A DNA stretch of 64,000 bases. It comes from an uncultured Chloroflexia bacterium. GTDB lineage: Bacteria; Chloroflexota; Chloroflexia; QHBQ01; JADMIH01. The notes under the pieces were generated by a model. That model searched no databases. It was not told the origin of the DNA and was given only the letters and a program-made list of their open reading frames with translations. A program made the translations under genes and the position numbers. Below, piece after piece: positions 5,895-58,534 of this stretch (positions are counted from its first letter, which is position 1; each line of letters starts with the position of its first letter). Location: positions 221,231 through 285,230 of the forward strand of contig CAWCNY010000005.1 in NCBI GenBank assembly GCA_963797095.1. Reading direction: 5' to 3'.

Positions 5895-7784
5895 GTGAGT
5901 TTCCACATGACGCTCAGTTCCTTTCGTGCGCGCCGCTCTGGTGGCCCGCGTCTCCTCATGGCTTTAATGCTGACGTTCTCTGCCCTGGGAATATTGCTCG
6001 CGCCGATCTCGCGTGCGGGTGTAGCGCAGGCGCAGACTACCCGCGCACGAACCCCCGGAGACGGCGACCTTTTCGGGATCGTGATGCGCGATCCCTTCTA
6101 CGAGTTCAACACCGACCCGGTCAACTATCCGATGCAAGCCAACAAGACGGCCCTGGAAGAGCAAGCGCAGGAGCTTGCGAACGCGGGTGTGCGCTGGGTG
6201 CGCCTGGAGTTCTTCGCCGACTATGACGGCAGCGTACCCGCAGGGGACATCAACTGGGCCAAGTACGACTACTTCATCAACGAGTTGGCCCCCAAGTACG
6301 ACCTCAAGGTGCTGGCCCTCCTGAACGTGGGGATTGTATCGTACGAGGGCCAGACAGTGCGCACAATCGCGTTCAACGACCCACCGGACGGTGCGGGCGC
6401 AGATCCCAACGACGGCTCCAACCACTTCATCCGCGTGTTCCGCGACCGAGCCGCGCAGGTAGCAGCACATTACGGGCATGCGATCAGCGCCTACGAGATC
6501 GTCAACGAACCGAACATTAGCTGGGATCTGTGGCAGGACAGCCACTATATTGAGGCCGAGATCAAATCTGAAAGATATGCAGCGCTGCTGTCGAGCGCCT
6601 ACGAAGCGATCAAGACCGTGGACCCCGACGCGCAGGTGATCACAGGCGGGATCATGATCGGCTCGCCACCCGAAGAACAAGATCGCAATGAGTTTGACTA
6701 CCTGTACGAGCTATATACATCCAAGTGGGTGGCCCGATATAAGTTGGATGGTGGGCCAAACAAACCCGGCTGGAACGTCGTGCCCTGGGACGGGGTGGCC
6801 CTGCACCCCTACTGGATGGACGCGCCAACGCTTTTTGCGCTGATCAACGACTTCTCACGCAAGCTGCGCGACCGCCAGGACTTCAAGAGCAGGCTGTGGA
6901 TCACCGAGGTGGGCGCGCCGGCCGATCCGCCTACTGGGCAGACCGACAAGCCGTCACAGCAGGAGATCGACCAGGCGTACTACCTGCGCGCCATCTACGG
7001 CGGCATCCTGGACAGCGACGAATTGAGCGCCAACGTCGCGCACGTCTTCTGGTTCAAGTACGAGGACTTTGTGCCCGGAGACTACACCCACAACTACGGG
7101 CTGGTGCGCCTTGAGGAGAACGCCACCCATGACGACTACGCACCTTCGGGCAAGGTGTGGGTGCACAAACTGGCATTCAAGGCATACCAGGAGCTTGCGC
7201 TCGGCTACAGCATCACCGACCCCGTGGCGGAAGCGGATGCCCGCGCCCAGAACTTCTTCTACTTCGATGCTACCCACCAGGCCATCGCGCCTCAGTTCGC
7301 CGAATACTGGATCGAGAAGGGGGGGTTAGAGCGCTTCGGCTATCCCATATCGCGCCCCGTGACGATTAAAGGCGTACTCAGCCAGTTCTTCCAACGCGCG
7401 GTGTTCGAGTACCACCCGGAATACGCGCGCACCCCTAACGAGGTGCTACTGCGTCTGGTTGGCAGCGAGCTTGCCGTTGGGCGCAATTTCGCTCCCGCCG
7501 ACAAATCGGTGCTCTCCAGCGACGGAATGTTCTTCCCCGAAACCGGGCACACACTGAAAGACCCATTCCTCACATTCTGGAATGAGCGCGGCGGCCTTGC
7601 TGTGTACGGCTACCCGATCTCCGAGCAGCTTTCGGAACAGGCACCTGACGGCCATATCTACACCGTCCAATATTTCGAGCGTAACCGCCTGGAGTACCAC
7701 CCCGAAGCAGCGGGCACACCCTACGAAGTACAGCTTGGCCTGCTTGGCGCGGCCCTCCTGAAAGAGGACCTCTGGTGGCGCTAG
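5895..7784 (+). CDS. Secreted clan GH-A glycoside hydrolase (GH5/GH39-like) with two C-terminal tandem repeats of about 75 aa (LGFP-like)
   Basis: Signal peptide. Acid/base motif YEIVNEPN and nucleophile motif LWITEVGAP. Two C-terminal repeats containing GG(L)xxFGYPIS...QYFERxRxEYHP...QLGLLG. Confidence 0.7.
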   Translation: MSFHMTLSSFRARRSGGPRLLMALMLTFSALGILLAPISRAGVAQAQTTRARTPGDGDLFGIVMRDPFYEFNTDPVNYPMQANKTALEEQAQELANAGVRWVRLEFFADYDGSVPAGDINWAKYDYFINELAPKYDLKVLALLNVGIVSYEGQTVRTIAFNDPPDGAGADPNDGSNHFIRVFRDRAAQVAAHYGHAISAYEIVNEPNISWDLWQDSHYIEAEIKSERYAALLSSAYEAIKTVDPDAQVITGGIMIGSPPEEQDRNEFDYLYELYTSKWVARYKLDGGPNKPGWNVVPWDGVALHPYWMDAPTLFALINDFSRKLRDRQDFKSRLWITEVGAPADPPTGQTDKPSQQEIDQAYYLRAIYGGILDSDELSANVAHVFWFKYEDFVPGDYTHNYGLVRLEENATHDDYAPSGKVWVHKLAFKAYQELALGYSITDPVAEADARAQNFFYFDATHQAIAPQFAEYWIEKGGLERFGYPISRPVTIKGVLSQFFQRAVFEYHPEYARTPNEVLLRLVGSELAVGRNFAPADKSVLSSDGMFFPETGHTLKDPFLTFWNERGGLAVYGYPISEQLSEQAPDGHIYTVQYFERNRLEYHPEAAGTPYEVQLGLLGAALLKEDLWWR

Positions 7785-48854: not shown

Positions 48855-48960
48855 CAGGCTCTTATCAAGAGAGGTGGAGGGATACGGCCCTATGAAGCCC
48901 GGCAACCAGACCAACGGTGGTCCAGGTGCCAACTCCGACAGAGCGATCTGTAAGATGAGG
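48855..48960 (+). promoter_or_regulatory. SAM-I (S-box) riboswitch aptamer
   Basis: ctcTTATCAAGAGaGGtGGAGGGAtacGGCCCtATGAAgCCCGGCAACC...GGTGCCAActCC...aAGATGAG is a near-consensus S-box core, including the P1 strands CUCUUAUC/GAUGAG. Confidence 0.8.
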
Positions 48961-48993
48961 GAGTGGTTGGTCTGGCGCTACGCGCACATGCCT

Positions 48994-49019: not shown

Positions 49020-49068
49020 ATCCCTCAAAGTGAGTGAGCCGGACTGAGCAATATGGAGAATTCGACCA

Positions 49069-49095
49069 ACGCCCCTTCGCTGGGCGTTTTTGTTT
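49069..49095 (+). terminator. Second terminator-like hairpin upstream of the aspartokinase start
   Basis: aacgccc-cttcgct-gggcgtt followed by tttgttt, about 30 nt before the ask start. Confidence 0.45.
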
Positions 49096-49126
49096 GCCCA
49101 ATTTTCATGATACAGGGTGCAGCATA

Positions 49127-50494
49127 GTGAGTTTTGTAGTACAAAAGTATGGCGGTACATCGGTGGCGACCACCGAACGCATCCGGGCGGTTGCCCACCG
49201 CATTCGCGCTCGCCACGATCAAGGCGACCGGTTGGTGGTGGTGGTGAGCGCTATGGGCAACACCACCGACGACCTGTTGGCCCTTGGACTCTCCCTCAAC
49301 CCACAGGCCTATGGTCGCGAAGTCGATCTGCTTATGTCCACGGGCGAGGTGGTGTCCTGCGCCCTCCTGGCCCTTGCTCTGCAAGACCTGGGTGTGCCCG
49401 CCCGCGCATTCACCGGCGCACAGGCGGGCATCCTCACCGACGGCAATTTCAGCAGGGCCGCCATCGCCGGTCTGAAACCCGACCGCCTCCAAGCCTCCCT
49501 GGCAATCGGCGAGGTGCCGGTAGTAGCCGGCTTCCAGGGCATAAGTGGCACCGACATCGAGATCGAAGTAACAACCCTCGGTCGTGGCGGCTCCGATACC
49601 ACCGCCGTTGCCCTCGCCGCAGGCTTACACGCTGAAAGGTGCGAAATCTATACCGACGTGGACGGTATCTTTACCGCCGACCCGCGTGTGGTCCCAGGCG
49701 CTCGCCGCCTGTCGCGTATCACGCCTACCGAGATGCTGGAGCTTGCTCAGCAAGGCGCTCAGGTAATGCACCCCCGCGCCGTCGAGCTTGGCGGCATCTA
49801 CAACATACCAATCCGGGTGGCCTCCAGCTTCAACGATGGGCCGGGCACATGGATCATAGCGCCCGGTTCGCCCCTACCGGCAATATATGGACCTGCCTTT
49901 CACACTCTTTCTCACAATCTGGAGGAGCAATTGGAGCTAAAGAACAAAGTCTCAGGCATAGCCCACGATACTAACGTGGCCCGCATAACAGTCTTCGGCC
50001 TCCCCAGGCCCCAGTTCGCCCTCTTCCGTCTCTTCGGCCCCCTGGCCGAGGCTGGCATCAACGTCGACGCCATAGCTCATTCAATCGAGCCGGGCGGCGA
50101 GCATGCCGACTGCTCGTTTACCGTCACCGAGTCCGATCTCACCCGCGCTTTGTCGATCACCCGGCATACAGCCACCAACCTGGGCGCGTACAACGTCCAA
50201 GGCGAGCGCGCCGTAGGCAAAGTCTCCGTCATCGGCCTCGGTGTGCAACACGTACCCGGCCTCGCCTGCCACGCTTTCGCCGCCCTTGAAAGCGCGGGCA
50301 TAGAGATCGACATGGTCACTACCTCGCAGGTACGTATTACCTGCCTGGTCCTCGAATCGCGGGTCGTTGAGGCCGCGCTGCTCTTGCACTCCGCTTTCGG
50401 CCTCGACGGGGAGCCAACAAGCGACACGCATCTCAAACCGGACATCATCGCCCCTGCACTGGCAGGCGTGCTCACCCCAGGGGGTGGAGCATGA
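49127..50494 (+). CDS. ask: Aspartate kinase with C-terminal ACT domains
   Basis: GTG start just before VVQKYGGTSV. AK motifs VVSAMGNTTD and two ACT-like repeats. The ORF-track 5' extension covers the terminators and is not coding. Confidence 0.8.
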   Translation: MSFVVQKYGGTSVATTERIRAVAHRIRARHDQGDRLVVVVSAMGNTTDDLLALGLSLNPQAYGREVDLLMSTGEVVSCALLALALQDLGVPARAFTGAQAGILTDGNFSRAAIAGLKPDRLQASLAIGEVPVVAGFQGISGTDIEIEVTTLGRGGSDTTAVALAAGLHAERCEIYTDVDGIFTADPRVVPGARRLSRITPTEMLELAQQGAQVMHPRAVELGGIYNIPIRVASSFNDGPGTWIIAPGSPLPAIYGPAFHTLSHNLEEQLELKNKVSGIAHDTNVARITVFGLPRPQFALFRLFGPLAEAGINVDAIAHSIEPGGEHADCSFTVTESDLTRALSITRHTATNLGAYNVQGERAVGKVSVIGLGVQHVPGLACHAFAALESAGIEIDMVTTSQVRITCLVLESRVVEAALLLHSAFGLDGEPTSDTHLKPDIIAPALAGVLTPGGGA

Positions 50495-51699
50495 CTGTAC
50501 AATCCTCCGGCCTGATCGACCTGACATTCCTCGACGACGATCCTTCTGTCGCCCTACGACCCCTCGCCGTCGAGGCAGACGATGTGCCGGTCGGCCCCAG
50601 GCATCTATGGACCCTCCCCGAAGGTCTCCGCCTGGAATCCGGCGCGCACCTCGCGCCCATCGAAGTAGCCTACGAGACCTGGGGCCACCTCAACGCAACA
50701 GGCGACAACGCGATACTCGTCTGCCATGCCCTCACTGGCGACTCCCACGCTGCCGGTAGATACTCCCCCGATGACGACCACCTCGGCTGGTGGGACCCCC
50801 TGATCGGCCCCAACCGCGCCTTCGATACAAATCGCTACTTCGTGGTGTGCGCCAACGTGCTCGGCGGCTGCCAGGGCACCACAGGCCCCGCGTCGATCAA
50901 CCCTGGCACGGGCCGCCCCTATGGCAGCGTCTTCCCCCAGGTCACAGTGCGCGACATCGTGCGCCTCCAATACAGCCTTCTATGCGCGTTGGGTGTCCGG
51001 CGTCTGGCGGCGGTCGCGGGCGGCTCGCTCGGCGGGATGCAGGTGCTGGAGTGGCTCGTTACATACCCCGGCTTCGTCGCCAAAGCCATCCCCATAGGCT
51101 CTTCTCTCGCCCACACCTCGCAGGGCATAGCCTACAACCTGGTGGGACGCCAGGCTATTATGCTCGACCCCGATTGGCAAGGTGGCGACTACTACGGCAC
51201 AGACCGGTCCCCTGGGCGTGGCCTCTCAATCGCTCGCATGGTCGGCATGATCACCTACCAGAGCGAGGAGTCGATGCGACGCAAGTTCGCAAGGGACCGT
51301 GTAGACCCTTCGCCCGACTCGTATTACGATCCCGACAGCCTCTTCCAGGTTGAAAGCTATCTCCACTACCAGGGCGCATCTCTCGTCAAACGTTTCGACG
51401 CCAACAGCTACCTGCTCCTTTCCAGGGCAATGGACCTGCACGACATAGGCCGCTCTCGCGGTGGCGTAGACGAAGCGCTATCCCGCATAAGCCCCACCAC
51501 AGACACCCTTTTGATAGGCATCAACAGCGACATCCTTTTCCCCACCCACCACCAGCGCGAAACAGCTGGCCGCCTGACTGCCTCAGGCCACAACGCAACC
51601 TACACAGAGATAGATTCCCCATGGGGCCACGATGCCTTCCTGATAGAATACAACCAGCTAGCCTCAGCAATAGCCAATTTCATTGGAATTGACGAGTGA
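50491..51699 (+). CDS. metX: Homoserine O-acetyltransferase MetX
   Basis: Alpha/beta hydrolase with GGSLGGMQ nucleophile. MetX N-terminal pattern. ATGA overlap with ask. Confidence 0.85.
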   Translation: MTVQSSGLIDLTFLDDDPSVALRPLAVEADDVPVGPRHLWTLPEGLRLESGAHLAPIEVAYETWGHLNATGDNAILVCHALTGDSHAAGRYSPDDDHLGWWDPLIGPNRAFDTNRYFVVCANVLGGCQGTTGPASINPGTGRPYGSVFPQVTVRDIVRLQYSLLCALGVRRLAAVAGGSLGGMQVLEWLVTYPGFVAKAIPIGSSLAHTSQGIAYNLVGRQAIMLDPDWQGGDYYGTDRSPGRGLSIARMVGMITYQSEESMRRKFARDRVDPSPDSYYDPDSLFQVESYLHYQGASLVKRFDANSYLLLSRAMDLHDIGRSRGGVDEALSRISPTTDTLLIGINSDILFPTHHQRETAGRLTASGHNATYTEIDSPWGHDAFLIEYNQLASAIANFIGIDE

Positions 51700-51754
51700 C
51701 GAGTGACGAGTGGCGAGTACCGCTGCACACTCGCTACGCGTCACTCGTCCTCAC
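51691..51754. repeat. Tandem heptamer array (GACGAGT x3-4) with downstream inverted copy, overlapping the last codons of metX
   Basis: gacgagtgacgagtgacgagtggcgagt ... acactcgct..tcactcgtc forms a hairpin in the metX-metY spacer. Confidence 0.7.
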
Positions 51755-51787
51755 CTACCCCATTTCACACCTCGGAGAAACATAACC

Positions 51788-53047
51788 ATGACTGACACTC
51801 AATCCAACAGCACCGGAAGAGCAGCGGGCTTCGCCACCAGGGCGGTACGCTCCGGCCTAAACCCACCGCTTGAGGGCACACGACCCACCGCAGTGCCCAT
51901 CTACGCTACCACCACCTTTCTCAGCGACGACGCCCAGGCTCTCGACGGCGTGCTCGGAGGCTCACTACCGGGCTACGTCTACGGACGCTACGGCAACCCA
52001 ACCCTTACTTCTCTCGAAAACGCCGTGTCCGCCCTTTTGGACGCGCCCGAAAATACCACAGTCGCCTTCAGCAGCGGCATGGCCGCCTTGCACGCCGCGC
52101 TCCTCCTCTGCGAATTAGAGCCTGGCGCGACCATCCTCGCGGGCACCGAGCTTTACGGAGCGAGCCACACCCTTCTCGCCACCCTGTTCGGCCAGTTCGA
52201 GGTGCAGATACGCTTTGCCGACATGTCCAATCTGGAAGAGGTACGCCAGGCCCTCAATACCCTGCCCACCCCTCGCGTAGTCCTCTTTGAAACGATTTCC
52301 AACCCTCTTATCAGGGTAGCCGACGTGCCCGCCATCTGCGAGGCCGCCCATGCCGCGGGCGCGCCCGCCATCGTAGACACCACCTTCACCCCTCCGCCCC
52401 TGGTGCAGCCCCTTGCTCACGGAGCCGACATTGTCGTGCAGAGCGCTACAAAGTACATCGGAGGCCACGGCGATGTGGTCGGCGGCCTTGTAACTGTGGC
52501 CGACCCCGATCGCGTCGCCACCCTGCGCCAGATATCGAAACTAACGGGCGCGATCCTCGGCCCCTTCGAAGCGTTCCTTATAGCGCGCGGCCTCCGCACC
52601 CTCGTACTCCGCGTCACCAAACAAAGCGAAAACGCCGCTATCCTGGCTCGCAGGCTTGCGGAACTCCCCCAGGTCGCCAGGGTGCATTATCCCGGCCTCC
52701 CCAATCACCCGCAGCACGAATTGGCGGGCAGGCTCCTTGTCCGCCCGCTCTTTGGCGCGATGCTGGCGTTCGAGATCGAGGGCGCGACCTACGAAGATGT
52801 GCTCGCCTTCTTCGACAGCCTCAAGCTGGCCCTGCCAGCCACCACCCTGGGCGATATCTACACCGAGGTGTCCTACCCCCTGATGTCGAGCCATCGCGAG
52901 TGGTCGCCAGCCCAGTTGCGCCGCGCAGGCATCACCCCCGGCGTGGTACGCGTCTCCGTAGGCATCGAGGATATCGACGATATAGTGGCCGATTTCGAGC
53001 AAGCCCTTGCAAAGCTGGAAAGCCGGATCGCAGCCCCCACCCGATAG
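51788..53047 (+). CDS. PLP-dependent O-acetylhomoserine sulfhydrylase / cystathionine gamma-synthase family enzyme (MetY/MetB)
   Basis: PLP-Lys motif SATKYIGGHGDVVGG. Cys/Met-metabolism PLP fold. Start at MTDTQSN with RBS ggag upstream. Confidence 0.8.
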   Translation: MTDTQSNSTGRAAGFATRAVRSGLNPPLEGTRPTAVPIYATTTFLSDDAQALDGVLGGSLPGYVYGRYGNPTLTSLENAVSALLDAPENTTVAFSSGMAALHAALLLCELEPGATILAGTELYGASHTLLATLFGQFEVQIRFADMSNLEEVRQALNTLPTPRVVLFETISNPLIRVADVPAICEAAHAAGAPAIVDTTFTPPPLVQPLAHGADIVVQSATKYIGGHGDVVGGLVTVADPDRVATLRQISKLTGAILGPFEAFLIARGLRTLVLRVTKQSENAAILARRLAELPQVARVHYPGLPNHPQHELAGRLLVRPLFGAMLAFEIEGATYEDVLAFFDSLKLALPATTLGDIYTEVSYPLMSSHREWSPAQLRRAGITPGVVRVSVGIEDIDDIVADFEQALAKLESRIAAPTR

Positions 53048-53050
53048 CCG

Positions 53051-54517
53051 CTACGACCTCAGCGCCTTCGCTAGCGCTCCGGTTCCGCGCCTCGCCGACG
53101 CAATACGCTCCCGTTGCTCAACGATCCAGTGCGAGTGCTTACCCAGCGCGCTCCGCCTCGCCTCAAGCATCCTCGCCATCTCGTCGGGTGCTGCACCTCC
53201 CACGTGCTTGCGCTTTGTGACGGCCCACTCAGGATCAAGGGCCTCTCGCACCTGCTCCTCACTAACCTCGATCTTCACGCCAACCGCCTCCGCGCCCGCT
53301 CTTATCTGCTCGGCGGTTATGCTGTGAAGCGGCCTCCCCTCCTCGATCATCGCGTCCACTATCCGGCCAACGATGCCATAAACTTGCCTGTACCCGACCC
53401 CGCTCTGCTGCGCGACGACGTCCGCAAGGTCCGTGGTGCTCGAATAGTTGTCCCGTACCGCCTGCAACATCCGCTCCCGGTTCACCGAAAGGGTGGACAG
53501 CGTCGTGCTCACAGTAGATAGAGCCGCCAGCGTCTTGTCAAAGCCGAGCGCCGTCCACTCCTTGATCTCCCGCGAGTCCCGGTTATAACCCATCGGCAGC
53601 CCCGCGAGCAGGTGGCCAGCCGTTGCCGCTATCCCTATAACCTCCTGGCCCGTGGCCCGCAACAACTCCAGCGCGTCAGGGTTCTTCTTCTGCGCCATCA
53701 CCGAGCTACCCGTGATCGGGTGCAGACGCTGCGCCACCGCCTCCCCCAATTCGATATATCCGTACTCCCAGGTGGTAAAGAGCAGCAAATCGGCGACCAT
53801 CTTGCTAACCGTAAGCGCCAACCGTTTGCACACGTCCAGGTAGGCCAGTTGAGGCAGCCCACGCGACCCAATAACGTCCTGCGGCACCTCCCAGACCCTC
53901 CCAAACCCCAGCAGTTGGGCAGTAAACTCCCTATCTATCGGCCACGAAGTGCCGTAGCTCTCAACCGCCCCCAGCGGGCAGGTATCGTACTCGTCCCATG
54001 TGTGTTCGATATCCGAGAGGCTGCGCGCAATCGCGTCCGCGTACCCAAGCGCCCACTGTCCGAGCGTAGTAGGCTTGGCGGGCTGCATATGCGTATATCC
54101 GGGCATCACCGTCCCAACGTGCTCCTCGACCAGGCCCAATAAGGCCCCCACCACCCCACACGTAGCCCTCGCCAGCGCCAGCGCCCGCTCCCGCAAAAAG
54201 AGCATTTCCGTCACCATCACCTGGTCGTTGCGGCTCCGCGCCGTGTGCATCCGGCTGCCGTCCTGCACCCCCGCCGCCTCGATCACCGCACGTTCCAGGC
54301 TAAGTTGTGCTCCCCGCTCCGGGTCGATCCGAAACTCCCCAGCCTCCACAGCCCCCTCGACATCGTCCAACGCTGCCAGTATCGAAACCGCCGCCTGCGC
54401 AGGAATGATCCCGACATGCTGTAGCATCAAAACATGGGCCAGCGTGCCCCAGATATCGTACCGAAGCATCTCGGTATCAAGCGCCACCTGGGCCGCGCTA
54501 ACGATAAAACCGCCCAT
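53051..54517 (-). CDS. argH: Argininosuccinate lyase
   Basis: Fumarate-lyase signature GSSVMAQKKNPDALE. Start taken at MGGFIV (54517); the ORF-track N-terminal extension translates heptamer repeats. Confidence 0.85.
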   Translation of the reverse strand: MGGFIVSAAQVALDTEMLRYDIWGTLAHVLMLQHVGIIPAQAAVSILAALDDVEGAVEAGEFRIDPERGAQLSLERAVIEAAGVQDGSRMHTARSRNDQVMVTEMLFLRERALALARATCGVVGALLGLVEEHVGTVMPGYTHMQPAKPTTLGQWALGYADAIARSLSDIEHTWDEYDTCPLGAVESYGTSWPIDREFTAQLLGFGRVWEVPQDVIGSRGLPQLAYLDVCKRLALTVSKMVADLLLFTTWEYGYIELGEAVAQRLHPITGSSVMAQKKNPDALELLRATGQEVIGIAATAGHLLAGLPMGYNRDSREIKEWTALGFDKTLAALSTVSTTLSTLSVNRERMLQAVRDNYSSTTDLADVVAQQSGVGYRQVYGIVGRIVDAMIEEGRPLHSITAEQIRAGAEAVGVKIEVSEEQVREALDPEWAVTKRKHVGGAAPDEMARMLEARRSALGKHSHWIVEQRERIASARRGTGALAKALRS

Positions 54518-54522
54518 CTCCA

Positions 54523-54557
54523 GATTTTGGATTTTGGATTTTGGATTTTGGATTTGA
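54523..54557. repeat. Tandem heptamer repeat (GATTTTG) x4.9 immediately upstream of the argH start
   Basis: gattttg gattttg gattttg gattttg gatttga. Confidence 0.9.
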
Positions 54558-54601: not shown

Positions 54602-54671
54602 CCGACTACCGACTACCGACTACCGACTACCGACTACCGACTACCGACTACCGACTACCGACTACCGACTA
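54602..54671. repeat. Tandem heptamer repeat (CCGACTA) x10, the reverse complement of the GGTAGTC array at 20586
   Basis: Perfect 10 copies filling most of the argF-argH intergenic region. Flanked by cactcgtcactcg (two GTGACGA-type units). Confidence 0.9.
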
Positions 54672-55766
54672 CCATCTCCCCACCAAGCTAGCCAGCAACG
54701 CGTTCTGCGCGTACATCCGGTTCGCCGCCTCCTGAACCACGATGCTGGCCGGGCTATCGAGCACACCATCCGTAACTTCCACGTTGCGGCGAGTGGGCAG
54801 GCAGTGCATGAACCGCCCGCTGTTCGTAAGCGCCATGATCTCCTCGTTCACGATCCAGTGCTTCAACCCTTCGCGGATTGCCTTTTCAGCCTCCCAATCC
54901 CCGTAATGACTGATCGCGCCCCAACTCTTGGCGCAAATCACTTCAGCCCCCTGCGCAGCCTGCGTCATATCATGGCTGATCGTCAGCGAGCCTCCCGCCT
55001 GCGCGGCTCTCGCATGGGCCGTCGCCATCACATCCGCGTCCAGGTCCCAACCTTCGGGAAACGCCAGCGTAACATCACAACCCATATCGCAAGCGGCCAG
55101 CAATTGCGAATGAGGCGTGGCGGTGGGCAATGCCTTAGGGTGATTTGCCCACGTCAGCACATACTTCTTCCCCTGCGTCTGCCCAAGTTGCTCCCTCAAT
55201 GTAAGAGCATCCCCCAATCCCTGGCATGGGTGGAACGCGTTCGATTCCAGGTTGATTACGGGCACGGAAGCGTACTTCGCGAAGCTTCTCACAATCGTAT
55301 CCTTGCGCGCCTCCTCCCACGTTGCCGACGAATTGCTCGTCTTGCCACTCGTAGTAATCAACTCGCTCGATCTTACTCCTAGCGCGTCGCAATATTCGGC
55401 CAGCACCGGAGCGGCCTCCTTGATGTGCTCCTGCGTCGCCCCGTTCATCACCACCCCATCCTCAAACTCGAACACATACGTCCCCGACAGATCGAGCGCC
55501 GTCCCGCCCATTCGAGCTATCCCGGCACCAAGCGATGTCTTGGTCCGAAGTGAAGGGTTGAAGAACACCATCCCAACCACAATTCCCCGCAACAATTGTC
55601 GCCCATACCCCTCCTGCTTCAAGCTCAAGGCCCGCTCCACAAGCTCAACAAACGCCTCCTGCGGCATCTCGGCACTATTGAGATAATCTTTCCCGGCGAA
55701 GGAATATGCCCCTTGCGCGCCCTGGTTCGCATTGATCTGTTCTATAGTATCTGTAATCGCAACCAT
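54669..55766 (-). CDS. ATCase/OTCase-superfamily carbamoyltransferase with non-canonical SLRTK motif (ornithine or acyl-ornithine carbamoyltransferase)
   Basis: HCLP motif (FMHCLPTRRN). Carbamoyl-phosphate site FFNPSLRTKTS replaces the canonical STRTR. 365 aa. Sits in the arg operon. Confidence 0.7.
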   Translation of the reverse strand: MVAITDTIEQINANQGAQGAYSFAGKDYLNSAEMPQEAFVELVERALSLKQEGYGRQLLRGIVVGMVFFNPSLRTKTSLGAGIARMGGTALDLSGTYVFEFEDGVVMNGATQEHIKEAAPVLAEYCDALGVRSSELITTSGKTSNSSATWEEARKDTIVRSFAKYASVPVINLESNAFHPCQGLGDALTLREQLGQTQGKKYVLTWANHPKALPTATPHSQLLAACDMGCDVTLAFPEGWDLDADVMATAHARAAQAGGSLTISHDMTQAAQGAEVICAKSWGAISHYGDWEAEKAIREGLKHWIVNEEIMALTNSGRFMHCLPTRRNVEVTDGVLDSPASIVVQEAANRMYAQNALLASLVGRW

Positions 55767-55786
55767 CTTTTACCTCCTATCCCTTT

Positions 55787-56860
55787 TCAGGCCACCACTT
55801 TCTCTATAACCCGCTCCTGGACCAACCCCGCGCCCTGCCCGAAAAGCTTGCCCTCAACAAGATCGGCAAGCAGGGCAGGCTGAGTGCGCCCATTGGCGGC
55901 AGCCTGCCCGAACCTTTGCCTGATGTAATCCACCCCCGCGCTATTGTCGGTGGCGGGTCCCGAAATACAGTCAACCTCAAGCCCGAACTGCCCCAGGTAG
56001 ATCAGTCCACCCCAGGCCGCCACCAGGTCGTTTGCGCACAGCACGTGAGTCTTCACATGCCCCATCAACTCTCGGTCCTGAAGCAGCAGGTCCACCCCGT
56101 AGTGCCCCATGATCCCATCTCCAAACTCCACCACAATCGCATCGGGGTGAGTTTCAGCGAGCGCCGCCAGTATCCCCTTAGCCGCGGGCACCACGCACTC
56201 GTCGGTGTGTGTCGTTGAAGGCAACCCTGCGTCGCTGAAGCTCATAGCGGCAATAGCGCCGTGGTCCTGCATGTTGAGCAGGTCGCGCTGGGTCGCCACG
56301 CCCGCCAGCTTGGCCGCCGCCAGCCTGTAGCCGCGTCCCGCCAGCACCCGGATGATCTCGCACGCCGCCGTTGTCTTTCCCGAATTCATGCAAGTACCCG
56401 ACAACAGCACAATGGGCGGCGATTGGGGCAGGCTGGCGCTCCACGGCACGCCATAGCTGCTCAAGTTGGCGGGGTGCCCGTCCACCACCGCCGTCCCCAC
56501 GACCCGTACCCGCAAAGGGTGGCCGAAATCAGCGTTGGCTGAGCTACAGCGCCCGAGCACTCCGCCCATATTCAGAACGTGCAAAATATCGCCGGGAGCC
56601 ACCTGCGCGGGTATCGAGCCAACAAACCCCTTCAATGCCTGCCGCTCCCCAAGCACGCCCGCGATCAGGTCGCCTTTGATGATGCGGGCCATCCGCCCGC
56701 CCACCAGTTCAAGCTCCCCATACACCGACTTCTCCTCCAGCGCCTCCACGACCACCACCTCACCCCGTTCCGCCGCGATAGAAGGCGCTATCTCCACTTC
56801 CACAGGGAGATTCACCCTGCCTGTAACAGAGGCGATCTTGTCAAGGTTGATCTTCATCAC
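55787..56860 (-). CDS. DUF1611 family protein (Rossmann-like N-domain plus P-loop-like C-domain)
   Basis: Motif IVLLSGTCMNSGKTTAACEI resembles the DUF1611 GTDCxxGK core. Translationally coupled: 4-nt overlap with argG, about 20-nt gap to the carbamoyltransferase. Confidence 0.55.
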   Translation of the reverse strand: MMKINLDKIASVTGRVNLPVEVEIAPSIAAERGEVVVVEALEEKSVYGELELVGGRMARIIKGDLIAGVLGERQALKGFVGSIPAQVAPGDILHVLNMGGVLGRCSSANADFGHPLRVRVVGTAVVDGHPANLSSYGVPWSASLPQSPPIVLLSGTCMNSGKTTAACEIIRVLAGRGYRLAAAKLAGVATQRDLLNMQDHGAIAAMSFSDAGLPSTTHTDECVVPAAKGILAALAETHPDAIVVEFGDGIMGHYGVDLLLQDRELMGHVKTHVLCANDLVAAWGGLIYLGQFGLEVDCISGPATDNSAGVDYIRQRFGQAAANGRTQPALLADLVEGKLFGQGAGLVQERVIEKVVA

Positions 56861-58155
56861 TCCTCACCTCCATTCGAATGCGAAGCCTGGAATACTGGCT
56901 GGCCGATTTCAACCTGGCCCAAATCGCCCTTCTTTGGCACATCCAATCCAGAATTACGCACTCTTTGAGCCAGCACGCTCTGCAACCCATACAGCTTGCT
57001 GAATGCCGCCGCCTCCGCACCCGTCCATGCCTTGTTCGTCTCGCCATACGTCCCGACCTTGCGGTCCAACATCGAATACTGGCTCCGGCACCCCAGTACC
57101 TGCATATGCCCTTTGTAAAGGTTCACCCGCACGTCGCCCGTAACGGTGCTCTGACTGCTGTCGATCATCGCCTCTATATCACGCATCACCGGGTCAAAAT
57201 AGAGACCTTCGTGCAGCATATTCCCGTATACATCGGCAAGGTGGTCCTTCCAGAATTGCTGCTGCTTGGTCAGCACCAGTTTCTCCAACTCTTTATGCGC
57301 CGTGATAGCGATCAATGCAGCCGGGGCCTCGAACGCCACCCGCCCCTTCAGTCCCAGTATCGTGTTGCCCAGGTGCATCCCCCGGCCAACGCCGTGCTTC
57401 GCGCCAACGTCAGCCAGTGCAACCATCAACTCCACAGGCCCCAGGGGTACGCCATCCAGCGCCACCGGCAACCCCTCATCAAACGTCAGCGTAATAACCT
57501 CTGCCTGGTCAGGGGCATCCTGCGCCGCCATCGTATCCACAAACGCTTCATCGGGCGGGAAATCCCACGAGTTGAGCGTTTCCACCCCACCTATCGTGGT
57601 GCCGAGCATCCCCTTGTTGATCGAATACCTGCCCGTCTTCTCCTCAACCGTGAAACCATACGACGTGAGATACTCCACCTCTCCAGCGCGTTGCGCCCCC
57701 AGGTCGCGTATGGGCGTGACAATCTCGGCCTCCGGCATAAGGGCTTTGATCGCCAGGTCGAACCGCACCTGGTCGTTCCCGGCCCCCGTCGAGCCGTGCG
57801 CGATGGCCGCCGCCCCATACTCCCGCGCCACCTCCACCACATGCATAGCCTGCACCAATCGCTCGGGTCCCGCGCACAGCGGATACACCCCCCCTCGCAG
57901 CACGTTCCCCTTGATGATGTAGCCCACAACAAGGTCCCACAGTGCTTCTCTACCGTCAATATTGTGGTGTGCCGCCGCTCCCAACTCACGAGAGCGAGCG
58001 CTTATCTTCTCCAACTCCGCAGGGCTAAACCCTCCCGTGTCAACCGTGACCGTAACCACCCGGTATCCCTGCTCTTTCAACCAGGGAACACAAAAGGAGG
58101 TATCGAGTCCGCCCGAAAAGGCAAGCACCGCGATTGGCGTCTTCAAGTTGTTCAT
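56857..58155 (-). CDS. argG: Argininosuccinate synthase
   Basis: PP-loop AFSGGLDTS. Start MNNLKTPIAVLAFSGGLDTSF with RBS ggagga upstream. Confidence 0.85.
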   Translation of the reverse strand: MNNLKTPIAVLAFSGGLDTSFCVPWLKEQGYRVVTVTVDTGGFSPAELEKISARSRELGAAAHHNIDGREALWDLVVGYIIKGNVLRGGVYPLCAGPERLVQAMHVVEVAREYGAAAIAHGSTGAGNDQVRFDLAIKALMPEAEIVTPIRDLGAQRAGEVEYLTSYGFTVEEKTGRYSINKGMLGTTIGGVETLNSWDFPPDEAFVDTMAAQDAPDQAEVITLTFDEGLPVALDGVPLGPVELMVALADVGAKHGVGRGMHLGNTILGLKGRVAFEAPAALIAITAHKELEKLVLTKQQQFWKDHLADVYGNMLHEGLYFDPVMRDIEAMIDSSQSTVTGDVRVNLYKGHMQVLGCRSQYSMLDRKVGTYGETNKAWTGAEAAAFSKLYGLQSVLAQRVRNSGLDVPKKGDLGQVEIGQPVFQASHSNGGEE

Positions 58156-58195
58156 ATCTCTCCTCCGTGACATCGGACAGCCTGTTTTTGGGCAA

Positions 58196-58227
58196 CAAAA
58201 AACCCTCGTCCCAAGCAAGGGACGAGA
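58196..58227 (-). terminator. Leader terminator of the T-box-like element upstream of argG
   Basis: Minus strand reads ctcgtccc-ttgctt-gggacgag followed by ggtttttt. Confidence 0.6.
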
Positions 58228-58481
58228 GTCAAGTTACTCCCGTGGTGCCACCCTCATTGTCACATTTATGGCCTGTGACCGCTCGTGGTTATTGCTTGCA
58301 TGGTGACCAACCACCCTCTCCTACTTGCGCGTCATTGACACTTTCTTCGGTAGGCCGCTCCGCGGCGCGTTCGCTACAACAGGTCCGTCGGGCTTCCACC
58401 ATCCCCAATTCGCTAAGGTCCCGGCTACAGCTACTATTCCACTTCAACACGGGCATTGCGGCATCAGCCGCTATTCGATTA
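58228..58481 (-). promoter_or_regulatory. T-box-like leader RNA (putative tRNA-sensing riboswitch) upstream of argG
   Basis: Minus strand carries AAUGAGGGUGGCACCACGGGAG, matching the T-box consensus AAUUAGGGUGGNACCGCG (16/18). It sits immediately 5' of the terminator whose 5' strand can pair alternatively. The leader is about 255 nt, transcribed from a TTGACG-17-TAAACT promoter (plus coordinates 58488-58516). Confidence 0.5.
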
Positions 58482-58534
58482 TCCCATAGTTTAGCATACG
58501 GCTAATAACCCGTCAAGTGGCAAACTGAACAAAA

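Follow-up and report, generated by a model that had tools for sequence, protein, structure and literature searches.

The argG operon in the window

The DNA analysed here is a stretch of 64,000 nucleotides (the window) from contig CAWCNY010000005.1 of an uncultured Chloroflexia bacterium, and our interest is in an arginine biosynthesis operon on its minus strand and, above all, in one gene of that operon. Between argG and argF' lies a 356-amino-acid P-loop open reading frame (ORF), for which we use the name X. From 58516 to 53051 the minus strand reads as a single transcription unit, in which a promoter-like site and a T-box leader are followed by argG, X, argF' and argH (Table 1). The products of argG and argH are shown by family models to be ordinary enzymes of the pathway. 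ArgG matches PF00764 and PF20979 in Pfam and scores 331 bits against TIGR00032 in NCBIfam (cut-off 268), and its gene call at another of the loci compared (L007) also has 432 residues; ArgH scores 330 bits against TIGR00838 (cut-off 279.5). The ArgH alignment begins at residue 37 of the maximal ORF, which extends to 54598 but would there translate a (CAAAATC) x4.7 repeat.

The stop codon of argG and the start codon of X overlap in the sequence TGATG. An earlier reading of this DNA from its letters and ORFs (the original prediction) had X translationally coupled to its neighbours, and this stands for argG and X; between X and argF', by comparison, there is no overlap but a gap of 20 nt with a GGAGG in it. 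Beyond argG, argF' and argH there is no arg gene in the 64-kb window, and no tRNA gene, and the pathway steps of argB, argC, argD, the deacylase and carAB are encoded outside it.

Table 1. Features of the argG operon, with positions given in the window
Feature	Position	Strand	Basis
Promoter-like TTGACG-17 nt-TAAACT, TG-extended -10	58516..58488	-	consensus scan
T-box leader: Stem I, Stem II/IIA-B region, Stem III, antiterminator	58456..58215	-	Rfam RF00230
Specifier codon CGC (Arg), in loop GAA-CGC-G before helix CCGC	58369..58367	-	covariance-model alignment
T-box sequence AAUGAGGGUGGCACCACGGGAG, bulge UGGC predicted to pair with the tRNA 3' end	58258..58237	-	motif search and covariance-model alignment
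Intrinsic terminator GACUCUCGUCCC-UUGCUU-GGGACGAGGGUU and U run (hairpin proper 58230..58201)	58230..58195	-	
argG, argininosuccinate synthase, 432 aa; ATG at 58155 after GGAGGAG	58155..56857	-	Pfam, NCBIfam
X, 356 aa, two domains, candidate N-acyl-L-glutamate synthase	56857..55787	-	
argF', N-acyl-ornithine carbamoyltransferase of the AOTCase/SOTCase group, 365 aa	55766..54669	-	NCBIfam NF003384
argH, argininosuccinate lyase; likely start ATG at 54517 after GGAG	54517..53051	-	NCBIfam TIGR00838
(TAGTCGG) x10.3 perfect heptamer tandem repeat in the argF'-argH spacer, from the argF' stop codon on	54602..54673	-	

Sequence and predicted structure of X

The Walker A motif of X, GTCMNSGKTT, keeps the GxxxxGKT pattern intact, as had been noticed at the outset. 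The accompanying label, that of a DUF1611 protein, does not hold. DUF1611/DgcN models gave no match to X in Pfam at E<=10 or in NCBIfam at E<=1, and the sole matches from the two libraries were CbiA and MobB, at the level of the P-loop and with E ~0.004. Among 41 diverse relatives of X, PF07755 (DUF1611_C) was touched by 12, with a best E of 2.3e-4, and similar numbers touched MobB, CbiA and AAA_26; two of the PF07755 scores, at 18.4-20.9 bits, lie under the 25-bit cut-off. The family of X is large, with 1858 clusters at 50% identity reaching E<=1e-3, and its annotation is only 'hypothetical protein'. The close homologues are named as proteins of Chloroflexia or Chloroflexota metagenome-assembled genomes (MAGs).

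In the AlphaFold model of X (predicted local distance difference test score, pLDDT, 91.3) residues 1-126 form an all-beta domain and residues 150-340 a P-loop alpha/beta domain. The predicted N-terminal domain on its own found no fold match in the PDB. The P-loop domain is structurally nearest to DUF1611/DgcN, with little to separate these from dethiobiotin synthetase and CTP synthase, the match scores of X being 17.1 for TM0796 (DUF1611, 2G0T), 16.2 for the DUF1611 protein Ava_3511 (2OBN), 16.1 for CTP synthase (7DPT), 15.9 for dethiobiotin synthetase (1A82, 3OF5) and 15.5 for 7XRJ. Five residues are invariant in the family down to 25% identity: R73 in the beta domain, G161 and K162 in the Walker A motif, K184 and E245.

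Comparison with DUF1611/DgcN (PF07755 plus DUF1611_N; 7XRJ, 2G0T and 2OBN) shows both kinship and distance. X is alike in its size of about 350 residues and in the position of its Walker A motif, but it is only 13-14% identical in the structural alignments, and its all-beta N-terminal domain without a PDB match contrasts with DUF1611_N, which is Rossmann-like. The PDB title of 7XRJ is 'N-acetyltransferase DgcN', and DgcN is a D-glutamate N-acetyltransferase according to Yu et al. 2023 as cited in the GapMind preprint discussed below; by this title and citation, the original prediction was right in that DUF1611 includes a novel N-acetyltransferase. Glutamate N-acylation is plausible for X too, although the substrate predicted for X is L-glutamate and its role biosynthetic, where DgcN acts on D-glutamate in catabolism. 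X is a distinct family whose predicted P-loop domain resembles that of DUF1611/DgcN and that of the ATP-dependent amidoligases, and it is not a member of DUF1611. It should rather be labelled as a distinct P-loop family, a remote structural relative of DUF1611/DgcN and a predicted alternative ArgA.

Two further kinds of relative were seen. Fungal homologues from Aspergillus avenaceus and A. melleus (P0185 and P0199), at about 30% identity, have equal length and the two-domain layout, and their annotation goes no further than P-loop NTPase or uncharacterised. In P0265, of 939 residues, a relative of X is fused to class I methyltransferase and TauD/TfdA dioxygenase domains, which hints that the scaffold of X is also used outside arginine synthesis.

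Genomic context of X in relatives

Close relatives of X are encoded at 331 loci in the species-representative genomes scanned, with carriers in Chloroflexia, Planctomycetota, Acidobacteriota/Thermoanaerobaculia, Gemmatimonadota, Cloacimonadota and Wallbacteria. The counts that follow cover the 77 loci in which X was labelled, the ORFs having been labelled by phmmer with the proteins of the window and of locus L004 as queries. An arg gene stands no more than two genes from X in 73 of the 77, and in 53 of the 77 argG is directly upstream. All of argG, argC, argD, argB, argF' and argH are present in 33 of the 77 loci, and X is then the sole unassigned gene. An M20 deacylase occurs together with X in 30 loci. 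The dominant operon, of which L004 is an example, reads argG-X-argC-argD-argF'-argB-argE-argH. This set covers the acyl-ornithine route apart from the formation of N-acyl-glutamate, and since X is the only gene in it left unassigned, X would fill the first step. Near the Chloroflexia operons no ArgJ, GNAT, M20 or proline-pathway gene recurs; only carA and carB do.

A natural fusion bears on the same question. In P0170, of 626 residues, X is joined to an amino-acid-kinase domain whose best scores are on the argB and ArgA models (L011:6001-7881; also L012 and L013). The fusion was found on four contigs, three of them from three different samples, and its gene divergently adjoins an arginase gene. 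This architecture would mirror the kinase-plus-acyltransferase design of classical ArgA, in which an amino-acid-kinase domain is combined with a GNAT domain. X is predicted to carry out the same reaction at the same position in the pathway; however, it has no GNAT domain, its predicted catalytic domain has the P-loop fold, and the domain order in P0170 is reversed.

In Wallbacteria a 1430-residue ORF without a Pfam domain lies between argG-X and argC (L001/L044:5664-9956).

Relation to the GapMind prediction

The core idea that X is an alternative ArgA is already in a preprint, which lowers the novelty of the present proposal. In Appendix 2 of the GapMind 2026 preprint (bioRxiv 10.1101/2024.10.14.618325) the missing ArgA of Steroidobacter denitrificans is proposed to be ACG33_RS14135 (A0A127FCT3), acting as an N-succinyl-L-glutamate synthase. 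According to the same source this protein is remotely similar to DgcN (7XRJ) and never co-occurs with ArgA homologues, ArgE is missing in Steroidobacter, and position 92 of the neighbouring ArgF' is A, P, S or V in 90% of cases, with 'two homologs with glutamine' also mentioned.

We connect X with this family through a Steroidobacteraceae proxy, P0140. This protein is 43% identical to X and matches a profile of X with its close relatives at an E of 1.6e-98; its own relatives at 86-91% identity are named Steroidobacteraceae. The operon of P0140, argR-argG-X-argC-argD-argF'-argB-argH without argE, is as the preprint describes. Because of this homology and this type of operon, X is treated here as a putative member of the predicted alternative-ArgA family. 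Like X, ACG33_RS14135 is a hypothetical protein encoded within arg operons that include argB, C, D, F', G and H, and X shares with it the remote likeness to DgcN (7XRJ) and a partner ArgF' without Glu92. The two systems differ in that the Steroidobacter operon has ArgR where the window has a T-box, in that the operon of the window is split and has argG-X-argF'-argH only, and in that the ArgF' of the window has Gln92 and SLRTK, so the succinyl assignment may not transfer. New here are the T-box control, the Gln92/SLRTK clade of ArgF', the kinase fusion and the dual arrangement of Arg and Pro leaders; these additions make the hypothesis directly testable.

The carbamoyltransferase ArgF'

ArgF' scores 396.3 bits against NF003384, the NCBIfam equivalog model of N-acetylornithine carbamoyltransferase (AOTCase), for which the cut-off is 288. 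Its best relatives in the PDB are the AOTCase of X. campestris (E 1e-85) and then the N-succinylornithine carbamoyltransferase (SOTCase) of B. fragilis (E ~1e-47). The identity of a canonical ornithine carbamoyltransferase (OTCase) was rejected, as the OTC, PTC, YgeW and ATC models all scored far below their cut-offs. The placement of ArgF' in the AOTCase/SOTCase group and outside the canonical OTCases is thus supported by family models, and ArgF' would carbamoylate N-acylated rather than free ornithine. The unusual carbamoyltransferase of 365 residues with SLRTK had been pointed out correctly in the original prediction, together with the suspicion that it is no canonical enzyme.

Besides SLRTK, the protein has the motifs HPCQ, AKSWG and HCLP, the last three of which it shares with the X. 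campestris (PDB 3KZC) and B. fragilis (PDB 2FG6/1JS1) enzymes. It differs from these in having SLRTK where they have S[ML]RTR, and in an N-terminal extension of about 22 residues and an insertion of 10 residues. Position 92 of the X. campestris enzyme switches between acetyl and succinyl specificity, Pro, Ala, Ser or Val there being succinyl-specific (Shi et al. 2007, as cited in the GapMind preprint). At this position the ArgF' of the window has Gln (NGATQEHI against DGDTEEHI), so that the AOTCase determinant Glu92 is not present, and neither the window copy nor the nine other Chloroflexia copies have the Pro, Ala, Ser or Val of the SOTCase type. In an alignment of 47 ArgF' encoded beside X homologues, Gln92 and SLRTK occur together in all ten from Chloroflexia, the window included. 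Among the partners from elsewhere, residue 92 is Ala in 28, Val in 6 and Ile in 2, with Ser or Pro also seen, and the motif is SLRTR, save for one protein with SVRTR and two with a gap in this place; Glu92 occurs in none of the 47. Because Gln92 is neither the acetyl-specific Glu nor a small residue of the succinyl type, the acyl preference of the window ArgF' is not predictable from the known rules, and in the Chloroflexia clade it may not be succinyl.

The T-box leader

The leader of the operon gives a full-length match to RF00230 (model positions 1-219) with an E of 6.1e-18 in E-value mode, at a score of 81.4 bits where the gathering score is 93. An Rfam scan of the window at the gathering threshold returned only a SAM riboswitch elsewhere. 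The T-box sequence GGGUGGCACCACGG makes the bulged antiterminator, whose 3' strand CUCGUCCC doubles as the 5' strand of the terminator. The terminator that follows directly has 12 pairs, 7 of them G-C, and then a U run; its 5' strand, reading CUCUCGUCCC, belongs to the antiterminator as the 3' strand. The motif, the terminator directly behind it and the pairing between the two, all part of the original prediction, are therefore present as described, and the leader also has a Stem I with an arginine specifier. The register of the specifier codon is backed, in addition to the covariance model, by a frame GAA-NNN-R-YCAC conserved in relatives.

Homologous leaders from 23 related sequences were folded with that of the window into an RNAalifold consensus of 24, in which 26 of 52 predicted pairs have compensatory changes; the helices that flank the specifier loop covary in relatives and the loop itself is unpaired. 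The leaders of relatives score 74.9-102.7 bits against RF00230. The minimum free energy of the window leader was no better than that of shuffled sequences (z -0.44), a measure that does not inform on a switch able to take up alternative folds. Where Chloroflexia loci have upstream sequence present (L014-L037), argG or X is preceded by the T-box core motif, which the same motif scan found in 0 loci from other phyla. We read the leader as a T-box because of the full-length RF00230 match, the overlap of terminator and antiterminator, the presence of CGC in all seven argG-led leaders and the covariation; taken together these support a genuine transcription-attenuating T-box with an Arg specifier, conserved across related Chloroflexia.

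In the mechanism we propose, the promoter, sigma-70-like in its sequence, would drive transcription of a T-box-forming leader about 285 nt long. Uncharged tRNA-Arg would pair through its anticodon with the CGC specifier and, at the bulge UGGC, through its 3'-terminal NCCA, and the antiterminator stabilised in this way would let RNA polymerase read through into argG-X-argF'-argH. With charged tRNA-Arg the terminator would form instead. The promoter-like site is a consensus match only, one of four such sites in the region where 2.1 are expected. Arg-specific T-boxes were reportedly described by Vitreschak and colleagues in 2008, at argS and in an expanded arginine regulon of Clostridium difficile. 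The leader of the window is the same as other RF00230 members in its Stem I and specifier loop, its T-box bulge and its mutually exclusive antiterminator and terminator, but its bulge is UGGC and not the commoner UGGU, and the present case is in Chloroflexia and ahead of an operon of the ArgF' type.

Two other leaders may be recorded here. On L009, a metagenomic contig without an assigned lineage, nearly identical tandem T-boxes (6192-6431 and 6478-6717) with the Arg codon CGG, both above the Rfam gathering score, precede argG-X-argC-argD-argB-argF'-argH. Near the X operon of L026 there are a tmRNA gene and an additional T-box on the opposite strand (2155-2501 and 6126-6402, minus strand).

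Split operons and two kinds of leader in Chloroflexia

In Chloroflexia the operon is often split, with X in both halves, as argG-X-argF'-argH(-carA-carB) and as X-argC-argD-argB; the window is of the first type. Single MAGs with two copies of X in different arg sub-operons are L019/L029, L037/L038, L039/L040, L014/L022 and L033/L036. The two copies are sisters in the tree for the first three pairs and not for L014/L022 and L033/L036, and the contig ends inside X in both L039 and L040. The pattern of copies points to recent duplication or gene conversion as its likely source.

The leaders of the two halves carry different specifiers. All seven argG-led leaders, that of the window included, have the Arg codon CGC, whereas 16 of 19 X-led leaders have a Pro codon, CCG or CCC; several of these Pro-type loci are closely related to one another and the 16 are not independent events. 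Among the other X-led leaders L018 and L030 have CGC and L017 has tandem Pro and Arg T-boxes (1307-1546 and 1721-1960). In L015 and L016 both kinds stand in a single gene row, the Arg T-box ahead of argG and the Pro T-box ahead of X-argCDB-argF'-argH. Further examples of X-led T-boxes are L022:1837-2078 and L020:9633-9922. Registers that would turn CCG or CCC into Arg codons were rejected, since the helix and the covariance-model alignment both set the frame GAA-NNN-R-YCAC and since L037 (CCC-A-CCAC) offers no Arg codon in any register.

The Pro-codon T-boxes suggest that the early arginine pathway is under proline-responsive control in these bacteria, which would be an unrecognised regulatory link between arginine intermediates and the supply of proline. 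We infer that intermediates of the ornithine pathway may also feed proline in these organisms, in which case X, as the committed enzyme, would be placed under both signals; an ornithine-to-proline shunt of such a kind exists in B. subtilis (PMC9245794). It is tempting to join these strands into one account, in which X starts an N-acyl-glutamate/ornithine trunk shared by arginine and proline, the Arg-T-box copy serves with argG-argF'-argH and the Pro-T-box copy with argC-argD-argB, and a co-evolved Gln92/SLRTK ArgF' signals an acyl group or donor chemistry unlike the acetyl and succinyl routes. We offer this tentatively and would give it perhaps one chance to three against. If it were true, two near-identical copies of X would let the committed step answer two tRNAs.

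Function of X

The supply of N-acyl-glutamate by X is the reading of the comparative genomics that is best supported, and it agrees with the independent published prediction. We consider it quite probable that X makes N-acyl-L-glutamate. It would thus substitute for ArgA or ArgJ while being unrelated to both, its P-loop domain probably holding an acyl-CoA donor, by analogy with DgcN, and its novel beta domain, with the invariant Arg73, binding the amino-acid substrate. Whether the donor would be acyl-CoA rather than ATP and a free acid is uncertain, because residues like those of dethiobiotin synthetase are retained. The locus as a whole is likely to represent the arginine-specific half of a pathway of the N-acyl-ornithine type in a Chloroflexia bacterium, under transcription-attenuation control and with X as its N-acyl-glutamate synthase. 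The original prediction was largely right in what it observed and right in direction in what it made of it: that the P-loop protein supplies the N-acyl-glutamate is best supported by the context of X and by GapMind, though not in the role of a DUF1611 protein.

Several points weigh against this interpretation. The assignment of a function to the X family is computational throughout, that of the GapMind preprint included, and the identity of the family of X with that of ACG33_RS14135 rests on the Steroidobacteraceae proxy. The structural likeness of X to DgcN is no stronger than that to the ATP-dependent dethiobiotin synthetase or CTP synthase, and in short, weak HMMER alignments the invariant K184 and E245 fall on Lys37 and Glu115 (the Glu of VEGAGG) of dethiobiotin synthetase. 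There is no deacylase gene within the Chloroflexia operons, the absence of argA and argJ was seen for the 64-kb window only, and the leader scores below the gathering score of its model.

The residues just named bear on the first of three alternatives, in which X is an ATP-dependent amide ligase that converts a free acid, such as succinate or acetate, to an acyl phosphate and transfers it to the amino group of glutamate. X would then still make N-acyl-glutamate, not as an acyl-CoA transferase but with the chemistry of the dethiobiotin synthetase, CobQ and CTP synthase branch of P-loop enzymes. K184 and E245, together with the intact Walker A motif, would fit ATP-dependent chemistry also, and dethiobiotin synthetases are the only significant sequence-profile matches of X in the PDB (E 1.6e-4). 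The alignments between the two are nevertheless short and weak, as said, and DgcN, an acetyltransferase by PDB title and citation, is the closest relative for which activity on glutamate has been demonstrated. We regard the ligase as unlikely.

A place for X outside catalysis is less probable again. X could be an accessory nucleotide-binding protein, serving as a metallochaperone of the M20 deacylase, as a partner of ArgG in assembly or channelling, or as a regulator. Comparable jobs are done by many relatives of the SIMIBI class (HypB, UreG, CooC, MobB), X almost always follows argG directly and is coupled with it in translation, and two copies are retained where the operon is split. Yet X is kept in operons without an M20 gene, in Chloroflexia and Steroidobacteraceae, and its fusion partner is a kinase domain of the ArgB/ArgA type and not ArgG or ArgE. 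With X in such a role the complete operons would be left without an enzyme for the first step. The conserved motifs of the family, as judged from summaries and with no motif search made, include neither the GTPase-type specificity motif NKxD nor a Cys-rich metal-binding motif.

It is highly improbable that X is an ArgJ-like transferase that recycles the acyl group from N-acyl-citrulline or N-acyl-ornithine to glutamate, and we know of no precedent in the P-loop fold for direct acyl transfer from an amide to an amine. Such recycling would explain the operons of Chloroflexia and Steroidobacter that have no deacylase, there being no M20 argE in any Chloroflexia locus or in L094 and the GapMind preprint noting the same gap in Steroidobacter, but 30 loci have X and an M20 deacylase in one operon, and where it is missing the deacylase may be encoded elsewhere in the genome.

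The N-acyl-glutamate synthase that we favour would be of interest in two ways. Many uncultured phyla, among them Chloroflexia, Planctomycetota, Acidobacteriota and Gemmatimonadota, have no known enzyme for the step that opens arginine synthesis, and a P-loop enzyme outside the GNAT family would, if confirmed, close this gap and provide a new scaffold for the N-acylation of amino acids. What the locus adds to the published prediction is an RNA that senses tRNA and whose codon names the amino acid served, a clade of ArgF' that fits neither acyl type, and a natural fusion with a kinase of the ArgB/ArgA type.

Other features near the operon

The spacer between argF' and argH has, besides the TAGTCGG repeat, a second perfect heptamer array, (CAAAATC) x4.7 at 54523-54555, just ahead of the likely argH start. 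These repeats could affect coupling or mRNA processing inside the operon.

On the plus strand, the SAM (S-adenosylmethionine) riboswitch returned by the Rfam scan (RF00162, 80.7 bits, 48859-48961) lies ahead of three ORFs at 49034-53047. The last of these, at 51710-53047, encodes a pyridoxal 5'-phosphate (PLP) enzyme of Cys/Met metabolism; it converges on argH, with just 3 nt between its stop and that of argH at 53051.

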